A DNA stretch of 10,064 nucleotides from Dapis sp. BLCC M229 (lineage in GTDB: Bacteria > Cyanobacteriota > Cyanobacteriia > Cyanobacteriales > Microcoleaceae): contig NZ_JBNHEP010000288.1 of NCBI RefSeq assembly GCF_050015995.1, forward strand, positions 19,547 through 29,610, written 5' to 3'. The translations under genes and the position numbers were made by a program. Shown here piece by piece: positions 3,024-10,064 of the stretch. The stretch's first letter is position 1. Each line of letters starts with the position of its first letter. The notes beneath the pieces are model-generated. The model was given only the letters and a program-made list of their open reading frames with translations. It was not told the DNA's origin and did no database searches.

Positions 3024-3424
3024 TATTATTAAATTCCAAAAACTAAAACTAACTTATACAGCTTATTTGTGGCAATAGCTAGCCAATTTATCAAAACTTA
3101 ATATTGCTTAAATAAGGCTTGCTGATTAACTGATAAAGCATTTACAGATAAAGGCTAAAGCCTTTATTATGTGAAAAAAGTGCAAGCTTTTCGGTCGTTT
3201 AACCTCAAAAAGTTAGCATTTTGAGCAGATAAAGGCCGAAAAATCAAGGGAGAATTATTCCTACTACCTCACTCTAGAATTCCTATTACTCCTAAATTAT
3301 GAATCAAAAGGTCCTCAGCTAATCTTAGTAATTGCTTCATTCTTTCCCAAGCTGATAATGCAGTTCCTCTGTAAGAGGCTAGCTGACTGCAAGTTAGCTG
3401 AATACTTAAAGATTAGATAAAAAG

Positions 3425-3454
3425 TCGGAAATGATTAGTTCGGAAATGATTAGT
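3425..3454. repeat. Tandem duplication of the 15-mer tcggaaatgattagt (two copies)
   Basis: Exact adjacent copies at 3425-3439 and 3440-3454 inside the long ORF-free intergenic region. Confidence 0.9.
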
Positions 3455-4052
3455 TCTGTTCTTTGTTCCCAAATTCCGAGAGATTTTATACACAACCAGA
3501 CTGAGGACTACTACAACAGTTTTTGAGATATTTCCCTATTCTCAGGCATATCTGAAGTCGTAAGCATTCAGTTATTAGCTAGCCTCTTACGAAGGAACTA
3601 CATTAACAGCAGTCAGCAATAACAATCAAGTCAGTTATTGGGTAATTAAGTCTAGACAATTTGTAGAGGTGACATAGCAGAGAACTTAGTTTATCCAATC
3701 TGCTTTTCCCTATACTTTTAATTCTTCTAACTTCACTTATCCTGATGCTAGTAACTGGTAGCTAATGACTGATAGCTGAATGTTTACCTTAAGTCAATGT
3801 AAAAAAACAGTAGTTTAGAACTATAAGATAGTAAAATTATAGCAATTCCCATACTGGTAAGGTACAAAATCTGTTTGTTTTAGGGAACAGGGAATAGGGA
3901 AAACTTAACTGGGAATAGAATAGAAATAAATATAGGTGTATCTTATTAGCCTGATAAACGCTATATCTCTATAATTACATGTTTATTTACTCAACAAAAT
4001 TAGTGAAAAAAATAGCCTGTGATTAATCAGTCTATCAAATAATTAATCAATT

Positions 4053-6900: not shown

Positions 6901-7131
6901 ATGGATACATTGAAGCCTTTTTATGATTTGATAATAAATTCCTTGAAGATAGGATTTACAATATTTTTCTTTGTAGTTCGTTTAATTGCACCATTTGAGA
7001 ATAGATGTCTGATTTTTGCGATAATTGCAGCTATCATCATTTTTTTCCTTGCTACCGTTTTTTCTCCCTTTATCCAGAATATTCAGGGAACTGAAAATGC
7101 TATAGATATCAACTATGCTTCTTCGTATTGA
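6901..7131 (+). CDS. Hypothetical small hydrophobic (two-helix membrane) protein
   Basis: 76-aa ORF with a strong ribosome-binding site and two hydrophobic stretches (IGFTIFFFVVRLIAPF and LIFAIIAAIIIFFLATVF). It lies 28 bp downstream of the thioesterase gene on the same strand. No family was recognised. Confidence 0.4.
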   Translation: MDTLKPFYDLIINSLKIGFTIFFFVVRLIAPFENRCLIFAIIAAIIIFFLATVFSPFIQNIQGTENAIDINYASSY

Positions 7132-7345
7132 CTGGAGGATTTGCTTTAGGAAAAATATCACAGTGGATAACAAAAAGATTATTCATGTAAATCAAGTAAA
7201 ATTGAAAAATTTAATATAGATAAAGTCATAACAGACTAGATTTTTATATCAGTCAAGTTAAGTTATATTACTCTAATAATTTGATTGACATATGAGAAAA
7301 GTTTTTTGAGTTTTCAGGTTTCATAGTGGGAGAGTTAGAAGTTTA

Positions 7346-7795
7346 TTGATTATTTAAAAGTCGCTGATAATCTTCTCTTTGTCGAATATCATCTAATGGT
7401 GATTCTGGTTGTGGAGGTTCATCATAAAATAATTCAAATTCCATAGTTTGAATACTAGCATTTTTGAGTATGACTTGAATTCTCAGCTTACCAGGTTTCC
7501 AAATTTTAGAACCAAGTTTTAATATCTTGCACTCAATACCTTCTATAGGAAAAATTAACTTGATATTTCCGAAAGTAATTCCTACTTCATTTTCAATAAT
7601 TTCTAGCCTTTGTTCAAAAAGTCAAGAGGCAATTTGCTTAGAACTATTTGTGTCTTTATCTACATATCGCTTCCAGAATCTATCTCTAATTTTTTTCCCT
7701 GCTAACTCCTTAAACCGTTCAACAGTAAAAATATCCTTCCCAATCATTAAAAAAATATCAGCATCAAATTCTAAAGGTTCAAATGTATTAGTCAT
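7346..7795 (-). pseudogene. Hypothetical protein gene interrupted by a single in-frame TGA at 7622-7624 (minus strand). Either a nonsense-mutated pseudogene or a sequencing error.
   Basis: Manual minus-strand translation from the ATG at 7793-7795 gives MTNTFEPLEFDADIFLMIGKDIFTVERFKELAGKKIRDRFWKRYVDKDTNSSKQIAS, then a TGA stop. The same frame continues with LFEQRLEIIENEVGITFGNIKLIFPIEGIECKILKLGSKIWKPGKLRIQVILKNASIQTMEFELFYDEPPQPESPLDDIRQREDYQRLLNNQ and ends at the TAA at 7343-7345. The product is about 150 codons with protein-like composition and only one stop. The plus-strand ORF 7527-7820 that overlaps it is low complexity. Confidence 0.45.
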
Positions 7796-7965
7796 AATAT
7801 CCGAGCAAACTTTTATCTAGTTAAGAATAACACAATACTTTCACAAATATAAAATGTATTTGTACAGTTTCCTTATTTTATAAAATAACAACAAAGCCAA
7901 ATTTTATATTCACCAATTTCAAACAATACTTATCCGATAATTGGTAGTGGCAGACTGTTTATACC

Positions 7966-9381
7966 CTATCCTCTAATTTTTTCCAGAGTAATTTCCTTCA
8001 ATAATTCCCGATTAATTTTTCCTTGAGAATTACGAGGTAAGCTTTCAACCTTTAGCCAATATTTAGGTTGTTTAAATTTGGTCAATTTTCCATCAATAGC
8101 AACTAACAATTTTTCCCTAGAAACTTCAAAATTATTACCAACATAAACAGCAGTTACAACTTCACCCCAATATTTATCAGCTAAACCAATTACACAAACA
8201 TCAGTAACTAACCCAGTTGCTAAAATAGCAGCTTCCACTTCTGCCGGAAAAACATTTTCCCCACCAGTAATAATTTTTTGACTGCTACGACCTACTATTT
8301 TTAAGTAACCTTGATCATCAAAAAATCCTAAATCATCCGTTGCTAAACTTTCATAATTCTTAAATATATTAGGATAATATCCTAAGGCTAAAGAATTAGC
8401 TTGAATACTAATATTACCAATTTTATTATGACTTAATATCTCCCGATTTTCATTTTTAACGATAATTTTAGCGTGAGGTAATACTTGACCGTTACTATTA
8501 TTTCCTGCTAAAAAATCTTCTGGTTTAAGAGTCGCAACTTGAGAAGCAGTTTCTGTCATTCCATAAGTTGGAGCTAATTTAATCTGATATTTTCTTGCTG
8601 CATTAAATAATTCTTCCCAAGCAGCGGCACCACCTAAAAGCACTGTCTGAAAATTTGATAACCAATTAGCTATTTCTGCATTTTGTAGCAAATTTTGTAA
8701 CTGGGTTGGCACCAGGGAAATGAAAAAATCATTGGGGTTAATATTCCATTCCTTTTTGTCGAAAATTTCTTTATAGGATGGCAAAATTACTAGATTTCCC
8801 TCAGTGGTAAAAGAGCGCATAAACTGCATTAAACCACTGACATGATATAGGGGTAAAACACAAAATGAATTAATTTGTTGTACTTGAAAATATTCTTGGA
8901 AACCTCTAACCGATGATATTAAAGTTTCCCATGTATGAATAGCAAATTTAATTTTTCCAGATGATCCACCAGTAGGAATCATAATCAAATTTTTTTCATT
9001 AGGGAGATTTTTTTTCCAGGGATTATCTGTAGGCAACCTAGATGTTTTTTCTAAACTCCCTTCTAGAAATTTATGGTTAAGGATATTTCCCAAAATTATG
9101 TCTGGTTGTACTGATTGTAAAACTTGTTCCCATTCCAATTTTCCCCAGTTAGGATTACATAAAAATACTTGACAACTAGCGCCAACAGCAGCAATAAAAC
9201 TGGCAATAAATTCTGTTGGTTTTAGTTCTGATATTAATACTTTGCTTGGAGTTTCTGGATTTGTTATTTTGATTAACTCGGCAAATTTTTTCTCGGCAAG
9301 ACAAGAAAATTTAGTAGAGGTAAAGAAGTTGGTATCTCTTTTGAGTTGGTATTGTTTTAGGTAGTTAAAAATTTGCTTCAT
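7966..9381 (-). CDS. menE: o-Succinylbenzoate-CoA ligase (MenE; AMP-dependent synthetase/ligase, short-N-domain type)
   Basis: 471 aa, colinear with E. coli MenE. IPTGGSSGKIKFAIHTW matches the phosphate-binding loop TSGSTGLPK. LVPTQLQNLL matches LVPTQLWRLL. LLGGAAAWEELFNAARKYQIKLAPTYGMTETASQV matches LLGGAAIPVELTEQAREQGIRCFCGYGLTEFAST. GGENVFPAEVEAAI...VIGLADKYWGE matches GGEGIQPEEVERVI...VPVADKEFGH. Its length is typical of MenE and shorter than FadD-type ligases. It sits next to a hotdog thioesterase. Confidence 0.8.
   Translation of the reverse strand: MKQIFNYLKQYQLKRDTNFFTSTKFSCLAEKKFAELIKITNPETPSKVLISELKPTEFIASFIAAVGASCQVFLCNPNWGKLEWEQVLQSVQPDIILGNILNHKFLEGSLEKTSRLPTDNPWKKNLPNEKNLIMIPTGGSSGKIKFAIHTWETLISSVRGFQEYFQVQQINSFCVLPLYHVSGLMQFMRSFTTEGNLVILPSYKEIFDKKEWNINPNDFFISLVPTQLQNLLQNAEIANWLSNFQTVLLGGAAAWEELFNAARKYQIKLAPTYGMTETASQVATLKPEDFLAGNNSNGQVLPHAKIIVKNENREILSHNKIGNISIQANSLALGYYPNIFKNYESLATDDLGFFDDQGYLKIVGRSSQKIITGGENVFPAEVEAAILATGLVTDVCVIGLADKYWGEVVTAVYVGNNFEVSREKLLVAIDGKLTKFKQPKYWLKVESLPRNSQGKINRELLKEITLEKIRG
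9224..9290. repeat. Direct-repeat copy A (inside the menE 5' coding region) of a roughly 70-bp diverged duplication; partner at 9385-9450, offset 161 bp
   Basis: ttagttctgatattaatactttgcttggagtttctggatttgttattttgattaactcggcaaa at 9224-9290 matches ttagttctgatattaatattttgcttagggtttctagataggaggttttgattaagtgaattgtaaa at 9385-9450, including an 18-bp perfect core. Confidence 0.8.
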
Positions 9382-9384
9382 AAA

Positions 9385-9450
9385 TTAGTTCTGATATTAA
9401 TATTTTGCTTAGGGTTTCTAGATAGGAGGTTTTGATTAAGTGAATTGTAA
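9385..9450. repeat. Direct-repeat copy B, immediately upstream of the menE start codon (9379-9381 on the minus strand)
   Basis: See copy A. About 80% identity over about 68 bp, colinear. Confidence 0.8.
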
Positions 9451-9454
9451 AAAA

Positions 9455-10064
9455 GACTATAAATTTCTACTTCTGACTTAATTTTATCTGAGACCAGAGA
9501 AGATTTTGTCGGCAAAATTAGCTGAGGAGCAAAATATTTCATCTGCCACAACTATATGAGGTAAAGTTCAACTCCCTTAAATAGATACAGACTCGAAATT
9601 TCTACTTCTAACTTAATTTTTTCTCAGACAACAGAACATTTGTTGGTCAAATTAGCTGAGGAGCAAAATATTTTATCTGCCACAACTATATAGATAAAGT
9701 TCGACTCCCTCAAACAAATACAGACTCGAAATTTCTACTTCTAACTTAATTTTTTCTCAGACAACAGAACATTTGTTGGTCAAATTAGCTGAGGAGCAAA
9801 ATATTTTATCTGCCACAACTATATAGATAAAGTTCGACTCCCTCAAACAAATACAGACTCGAAATTTCTACTTCTAACTTAATTTTTTCTCAGACAACAG
9901 AACATTTGTTGGTCAAATTAGCTGAGGAGCAAAATATTTTATCTGCCACAACTATATAGATAAAGTTCGACTCCCTCAAACAAATACAGACTCGAAATTT
10001 CTACTTCTGCCTGAATTTTCTCTCAAACCAGAGAAGATTTTGCCAGAGAAATTAGCTGAGGAGC
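9455..10064. repeat. 133-bp tandem repeat array, at least 4.6 copies, running off the right edge of the window. Three identical internal copies flanked by diverged edge copies.
   Basis: Unit starts at 9455, 9588, 9721, 9854 and 9987, period exactly 133. Copies 2-4 are identical (cagactcgaaatttctacttctaacttaattttttctcagacaacagaacatttgttggtcaaattagctgaggagcaaaatattttatctgccacaactatatagataaagttcgactccctcaaacaaata). Copies 1 and 5 are a diverged variant (...ctgagaccagagaagattttgtcggcaaaattagctgaggagc...). 133 is not a multiple of 3 and neither strand has an ORF. Each unit contains an imperfect hairpin, gacaacagaacatttgttggtc, nested in ctcag...ctgag. Confidence 0.9.

Follow-up and report, generated by a model that had tools for sequence, protein, structure and literature searches.

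NsiR1 is a small RNA of ~60 nt with a terminator at its end and a heterocyst-specific promoter, and each of the NsiR1-type repeats carries a heterocyst-type promoter (DIF+, TCCGGA). The NsiR1 array lies upstream of hetF in Nostocales and is made up of tandem direct repeats (Ionescu et al. 2010; PMC9045159, PMC6596454). Its units are defined sRNA genes, and the hetF-adjacent copy is antisense to the hetF mRNA (PMC9045159, PMC6596454). In Trichodesmium erythraeum IMS101, a tandem array of >6 kb yields the most abundant ncRNAs (Pfreundt et al. 2014, PMC4143802). The units of this array are 736–973 bp long and include a duplicate of the 3' part of the neighbouring gene, and measured transcription revealed one transcription start per repeat (PMC4143802).

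The array described here likewise consists of cyanobacterial tandem direct repeats. It is found in the marine filamentous cyanobacterium Dapis sp. BLCC M229, in a stretch of 10,064 nucleotides that is referred to in its entirety as the window. As in the NsiR1 system, the repeats lie directly upstream of a protein gene, and they end 73 nt from the ATG (position 9381) of menE. The menE gene (7966..9381, minus strand), located downstream of the array, encodes 2-succinylbenzoate--CoA ligase with the Pfam domains AMP-binding and AMP-binding_C. The MenE protein from the window is 100% identical to that named 2-succinylbenzoate--CoA ligase by NCBI in Dapis sp. BLCC M229, and its closest relatives are found in other Dapis, Okeania and Trichodesmium. 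The gene order in the cluster of these relatives is menF-menA-msrB-menH-menC-menE, with menE last. The array occupies the position of the relatives' menC–menE gap, between two genes of the vitamin K1 pathway, and its functional orientation is that of the window minus strand, with menE.

Tandem Repeats Finder identified one array at 9454–10064 (period 133, 4.6 copies, 93% matches, score 985), which is the sole long-period array in the window and confirms the tandem array upstream of menE that had been described in an earlier note on this DNA. Its 4.6 units of 133 bp are oriented as menE (minus strand), and the array is cut by the window edge. Alignment of the units showed that the inner units at 9587–9719, 9720–9852 and 9853–9985 are mutually identical, in agreement with the 100% identity reported before. 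The proximal unit on the menE side (9454–9586) shares 85.7% identity with the inner units, and for the cut distal unit (9986–10064) identity amounts to 82.3% against the inner units and 85.7% against the proximal unit. Both edge units have in common a version of the middle segment (~26 nt), ccagagaagatttt, that differs from the inner one; edge versus edge, 21 of 26 positions are identical, and edge versus inner version, 18–19 of 26, so the diverged middle variant ascribed to the first and the partial last unit is indeed present.

When the array is read in the register of the menE sense strand, its three identical inner units cover 9610..10008 (10008–9876, 9875–9743 and 9742–9610; minus strand), and each starts with AGAAGTAGAAATTTCGAGTC. 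The spacing of their anchors is 133/133/133, whereas the menE-proximal unit (9475..9609, minus strand), again 85.7% identical to the inner units, is 135 nt long in this register. Hence, the period of exactly 133 bp given in the earlier note holds for the inner spacing and not for the proximal unit, which has aaaatcttctctgg, the form common among relatives, as its middle segment. The diverged distal unit is represented by its 3' part (10009..10064, minus strand), as placed by the unit alignment, with the rest cut by the window edge. A unique leader (9382..9474, minus strand) connects the last unit with the menE ATG; it opens with a truncated unit start, agaagtagaaatttatagtc, and homologous leaders are present in a JGI metagenome contig (L007), a Trichodesmium MAG (L013) and a further relative (L019). 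The repeats contain no ORF longer than 29 codons and are non-coding, as had been proposed. Two other features did not hold up as described: the hairpin reported as conserved is present only in the three identical inner units, being missing in the edge units and in all relatives, and the constant tail (attagctgaggagc...) is constant only inside this strain and variable among relatives.

CRISPR arrays have repeats of ~24–48 bp separated by unique spacers, usually with cas genes near. The menE array is not of this layout, as its units are 133 bp long and three of them are identical throughout, including the segment that is otherwise variable. No CRISPR repeat family matched the array, and no cas domains were detected among the ORFs of the window. 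Small tandem repeats are present in long intergenic regions of the window at 2451–2490 and 3425–3456 (five copies of ATAATTAA and 2.1 copies of a 15-bp unit).

In all close relatives examined, the menC–menE gap holds a homologous element, always in the orientation of menE. Across 8 genomes or contigs, the homologous arrays range from ~1 to >6 copies with a unit length of 115–142 bp. Dapis M172 (L005) has at least 6 units of 136–142 bp with one N-gap, L007 has ~3 units, an Okeania sp. (L011) has ~1 unit with a 20-bp direct repeat on both sides, and the Trichodesmium MAG L013 has 6.4 units of 115 bp with a higher-order period of 229 bp, in each case in the menC–menE gap. One MAG and two metagenome contigs (L009, L017 and L018) start within the array directly upstream of menE. 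A 69-aa gene annotated within the M172 array (L005:9161–9369) is almost certainly spurious, because it lies wholly inside repeat units and the N-gap.

The unit was not found to belong to a dispersed family, a point that the earlier note had raised for checking. Searches by BLAST, pattern and nhmmer revealed no further unit in the remainder of the window or across ~164 kb from related loci, and a unit-profile search of these ~164 kb gave matches in these arrays only. A metagenome collection scanned with the conserved core yielded menE-upstream arrays only, and a scan of a viral collection produced no match; two initial collection scans used the strain-specific attagctgaggagc segment and were uninformative on relatives. 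A 16-mer match at window 3310–3325 was weak and was judged to be due to chance. Considered as a possible regulon motif, the GAGTCGAAC box was not found upstream of other genes in ~130 kb. Long-period arrays are rare in the ~164 kb of fetched loci, where the sole other one is at the menE 3' end in Okeania L014–L016. The menE-upstream array therefore characterizes this locus rather than the whole genome, being a locus-specific tandem amplification of the menC–menE spacer.

The second array of Okeania (L014/L015/L016:4454–4767; period 93–100, 3.2 copies) straddles the 3' end of menE (stop 4482), and repeats flank both ends of the gene in these loci. On the downstream side, menE and the 4HBT thioesterase gene are separated in relatives by apbA and a KGK-domain gene, both of which M229 lacks (window 7131–7966 compared with L005:11431–15411); only short unannotated ORFs are left in window 7131–7966, which indicates a rearrangement downstream of menE in M229. 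A non-coding stretch of 347 nt that extends from apbA to the KGK-domain gene (L005:12584–12930 and L013:5791–6136) shows 95% identity when Dapis M172 is compared with the Trichodesmium MAG, far above its surroundings. This stretch, which is missing from the window, matches no Rfam family and lacks ORFs of ≥50 aa; an RNA gene that has escaped annotation and a recent transfer are both conceivable. At the other end of the window, an ORF at 801–1280 has Major Vault Protein repeat domains (Vault and Vault_2), and the next ORF (1370–1951) has no Pfam match; the two may represent one fragmented gene. The vault ORF stretch has a GC content of 46% versus ~31% elsewhere, and the syntenic position in L007 is occupied by an MVP_shoulder gene. 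Vault-like proteins are unusual among bacteria. L007 further includes IS605 OrfB/TnpB-type genes on either side of the men region (949–1434 and 20874–21413), not adjoining the array, and one of these has a Cas12f1-like_TNB match.

An alignment of 18 units from eight sources was used to assess conservation. Units cluster mostly by genome. The exception is unit 5 of M172, which is 96% identical to the L009 units and 78% identical to its own neighbours, making this array a mosaic. The Trichodesmium units form two alternating subtypes, in an array with the 229-bp higher-order period. The likeness of units within a genome, together with a copy number that varies between strains, is the behaviour of a concertedly evolving tandem duplication, and the identical inner units, diverged edge units and mosaic arrays fit the pattern that would be expected of unequal crossing-over or gene conversion. 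The same process had been proposed from the M229 units, and the differing copy numbers, mosaic arrays and two-unit higher-order period of the relatives lend support to it.

Short reads are unable to span three 100% identical 133-bp units, and the short-read assemblies of the strain and its relatives break or leave N-gaps in the array, as would be the case if the assembler had created or multiplied the identical inner units. An independent Logan short-read assembly of the same strain includes a 5.7-kb contig whose end falls within the array at 163 bp upstream of menE, and five further assemblies have breaks or N-gaps inside the homologous arrays. However, the Logan contig stops precisely at the point where the sequence specific to the proximal unit ends and this unit turns identical to the inner units. 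Because the contig ends exactly at this unit-specific boundary, the repeat is real and not made by the assembler, whereas the number of identical inner copies is unreliable, since short-read assemblies break or hold N-gaps in these arrays. Moreover, at least 8 assemblies produced by different projects contain the repeat independently, and in these the unit variants can be told apart and the junctions to unique flanks are intact. An artefact is very improbable on this evidence, and doubt is limited to the number of identical copies. As a practical matter, short-read assemblies of these cyanobacteria should be expected to break at the menC–menE array.

The origin of the units was indicated by L019, a further relative with 76% MenE identity that has a 146-bp array in the same gap. 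The L019 units are pseudo-copies of its own menE 5' end (score 116, compared with a shuffle maximum of 32), in which the ATG has become ATC. The M229 unit matches the 146-bp unit of L019 in a common register (z 6.9, reached by 0 of 500 shuffles). Similarity is very clear in the half that includes the ribosome-binding site and first codons (z 6.9) and suggestive only in the other half with the core (z 1.8–3.3). Units of M229 and L019 share a novel junction, at which a downstream coding fragment (…AAATATTTT…CAGC) is joined to the TAATTT that precedes the start codon, and this common junction points to one ancestral duplication. In M229, a non-coding near-copy of menE nt 106–160 (window 9222–9276) is located at 9385..9439 (minus strand; 46/55 identical, 84%), where it adjoins the real menE start codon on the upstream side. 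The remnant of menE nt 106–160 is also present in L007, L013 and L019, and in L019 it is continuous with a full pseudo-5' end. It is through the L019 bridge and the copy in the leader that the units are linked to menE, because direct comparison of the M229 unit with the real menE coding sequence gives weak similarity.

The more distant Okeania L016 and L021 have several copies of their own menC 3' end/menE 5' end in the gap, 84–92% identical, and the outgroup L022 (60% identity) has a menC–menE gap of 88 bp with no repeats. Nearly all of this 88-bp gap is a long palindrome (L022:2405–2468; tcgtagtaatcgc…gcgattactacga), which could be a terminator or a REP-like hairpin. An origin of the distal end of the unit from the menC 3' end was also considered and was dropped after the comparison with L019, which suggests instead that menC of M172 and L007 simply ends within the first unit. 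As judged by homology, the array units are descendants of decayed menE 5' copies.

Silent cassettes that act as donors in gene conversion are a feature of antigenic-variation loci. By analogy, the pseudo-5' ends might form a silent store that donates to the expressed menE 5' end by gene conversion, given that the units are partial copies of the 5' end of the adjoining gene and that the copies in L019 and L016 are still 85–92% identical to the real gene. This explanation is hardly credible, however, as there is no evident reason why MenE, a biosynthetic enzyme of the cytoplasm, should undergo programmed variation, and the Dapis-type units are too decayed for coding.

A consensus scan revealed a promoter-like core, TTGAGG-17 nt-TATAGT, at 9951..9979 on the minus strand, facing menE, and again at 9818–9846 and 9685–9713. 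A degenerate core, TTAAGG...TATAGT with one extra base, was placed by exact coordinates at 9551–9580 on the same strand. Four Trichodesmium units have TTGCCG-17-TATAGT in the same arrangement on the menE strand. Consensus identity among Dapis-like, Okeania and Trichodesmium units amounts to 60% between the start of the unit and the last base of TATAGT, as compared with 31% downstream, and GAGTCGAACTTT and ATATAGTT are invariant in the comparison of the three genera. Thus, the sigma-70-like -35/-10 block is the best-conserved part of the unit across the three genera. As a control, two of three ordinary intergenic regions could not be aligned between Dapis M172 and the Trichodesmium MAG, whereas the core aligns; in comparison with Okeania, conservation of the core is about that of other promoter-proximal segments. 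In five relatives, a distance of 66 nt separates the last core from the menE ATG downstream of it, and the unit continues directly into the Shine-Dalgarno sequence. Taken at the level of the alignment, the pattern is one of selective conservation of the promoter-like block.

Each unit also includes an imperfect inverted repeat (9966..9996, minus strand) formed by TTCGAGTC (9996–9989) and GAGTCGAA (9973–9966), which lies just upstream of the -35 element and overlaps it. Among 14 distinct units, 85% of cells are paired, and in Okeania both arms are altered (TTCGACTT/AAGTCGAA). The covariation score of this inverted repeat was reached by 17 of 500 shuffles, and is suggestive only, modestly beyond controls.

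Several observations speak against a stack of promoters. The nearest core is ~170 nt from the ATG in the window, L007 and L013, and the last Trichodesmium unit has lost its -10. Matches to the consensus -35/-10 are not above those in shuffles (3 found versus 3.7 expected), and one unit subtype of M172 has a poor -35. In L019, L016 and L021, junction repeats are kept without a promoter-like core; hence, such repeats persist independently of the promoter-like box. Conservation of the core in the inner copies could result from gene conversion from a single functional copy. Of the functions put forward in the earlier note, that of repeated promoter elements is nevertheless favoured by the comparative data, in particular by the conserved -35/-10-like box facing menE; what these data establish is conservation, and promoter activity is putative.

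A rival explanation is a neutral minisatellite, derived from one ancestral duplication at the junction and then expanded, contracted and turned over by slippage and unequal crossing-over. In that case at most one copy would matter, the extra copies would be without effect, and menE would be transcribed from no more than one copy or by read-through from menC. In line with this, different lineages keep arrays of quite unlike unit composition at the one place, copy number ranges from ~1 to >6 with no obvious pattern, and a single unit suffices in one Okeania. Long non-coding stretches are also tolerated in these genomes, as seen in the intergenic gaps of the window and elsewhere (Pfreundt et al. 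2014, PMC4143802). Against this, the promoter-like block has been kept in inner and proximal units of three genera while the rest of the unit and nearby intergenic DNA diverged, and long-period arrays are no general feature of the surrounding 164 kb. We regard the neutral explanation as possible but rather unlikely.

The reading that we prefer, with moderate confidence, is that of an array of degenerate menE 5' regions in concerted evolution, by which promoter/leader modules would be stacked upstream of menE. It builds on the observed structure, orientation, locus specificity, homology and conservation pattern of the array, and supposes in addition that there is a benefit from several copies. 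According to this reading, the menE 5' region, comprising the ribosome-binding site, start and N-terminal codons, was duplicated with internal deletions, and the copies decayed until they were non-coding. Within a genome, they would be kept alike by unequal recombination and gene conversion, which would produce identical inner copies, diverged edges and strain-specific copy numbers. The constrained block of the Dapis/Okeania/Trichodesmium-type unit consists of the upstream dyad and the sigma-70-like -35/-10 facing menE. Each unit would then, we infer from its sequence, be an active promoter, and transcription could start in any unit and read through later units into menE. Such a stack would uncouple menE from menC, and the copy number would set the level of menE.

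The other function suggested earlier, a repeated small RNA, was examined by RNA-level analyses. If the units were NsiR1-like small-RNA genes, each would give a short regulatory RNA, sense or antisense, and an RNA from units derived from the menE start might act on the menE translation-initiation region. The layout resembles that of NsiR1, with repeats upstream of a gene, identical inner copies and diverged edge copies (PMC9045159, PMC6596454), and each unit has a promoter-like box. However, no intrinsic terminators were detected in the array of the window or that of Trichodesmium, and none recurs across the M172 units; on neither strand is there a recurring terminator in any array. An Rfam 15 scan of the array gave no credible family match even at E up to 10. 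Folding of one unit and across copies, as the earlier note had advised, provided little for this option: the folds of single units do not surpass those of shuffles for either strand, and the alignment fold gave a modest signal for the sense strand (z -2.6) and none for the antisense strand (z -0.8). Pair counting for two explicit helices showed 87–89% pairing with one true C-G to G-C swap, located in the small hairpin after the -10, but the covariation of both helices is within the range that the tool gives for unconstrained alignments. What would be transcribed, namely the sequence after the -10, is the poorly conserved part of the unit. A set of small-RNA genes is improbable on these grounds.

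Pair counting was applied to three candidate structures, namely the hairpin after the -10, the upstream dyad and a long hairpin around the -10, and none was clearly above controls. A tRNA-like reading of 'gttcgactccc' was rejected; ARAGORN was negative, and the flanks form no T-stem in any relative.

A more elaborate proposal is that the array is a conserved regulatory device for phylloquinone in the Trichodesmium/Okeania/Dapis clade, in which every unit fires and the leader RNAs serve as decoys for menE initiation. We consider this unlikely, if slightly less so than small-RNA genes. Were it true, MenE output would be tuned by the number of copies together with the decoy RNAs, or these would titrate a regulator, and the array would be a functional analogue of the NsiR1 array made from the 5' end of the target gene itself.

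If the units are active in the way that we prefer, the array would represent a natural promoter stack of variable copy number that sets expression in a biosynthetic operon, and a clear case in which the decayed copies of a gene's own start gave rise to new regulatory DNA. If the units are inactive, the array is a well-documented tandem duplication that persists and turns over at one junction in several genera. No long-standing question is opened in either case. The evolutionary interest lies in persistence at one junction across genera and in a promoter-like module embedded in decayed gene copies.

The menE array and the NsiR1 array are alike in their conservation across genera and in having identical inner and diverged edge copies. 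A promoter in every unit is proven for NsiR1 and only inferred for the menE array. In contrast to NsiR1, the menE array has no terminator and no similarity to NsiR1 or Rfam families, and the promoter-like box points at the gene, whose own 5' end gave rise to the units. The TCCGGA motif of NsiR1-type promoters was not found anywhere in the window. The array of T. erythraeum is from the same clade, also adjoins a gene, has a partial gene duplicate in each repeat, and combines near-identical inner copies with a diverged edge copy. For the menE array, the partial duplicate of the adjoining gene in each unit is seen through the pseudo-5'-end homology of L019 and the leader copy, direct similarity to menE being weak. 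The two arrays differ in that their sequences are unrelated, their sizes are not the same, and a 5' rather than a 3' gene part is involved. Ordinary bacterial tandem duplications and minisatellites are also arranged head-to-tail, with concerted evolution, copy-number polymorphism between strains and assembly breaks. Unlike these, the menE array has been retained at one junction in at least three genera with a conserved promoter-like block, and such retention and conservation are not expected of a purely neutral satellite. The menE array thus does not constitute a genetic system of a new kind. It is a curiosity of evolution in the Trichodesmium/Okeania/Dapis cyanobacteria and an undescribed but unsurprising member of the concertedly evolving tandem duplications that lie beside cyanobacterial genes.
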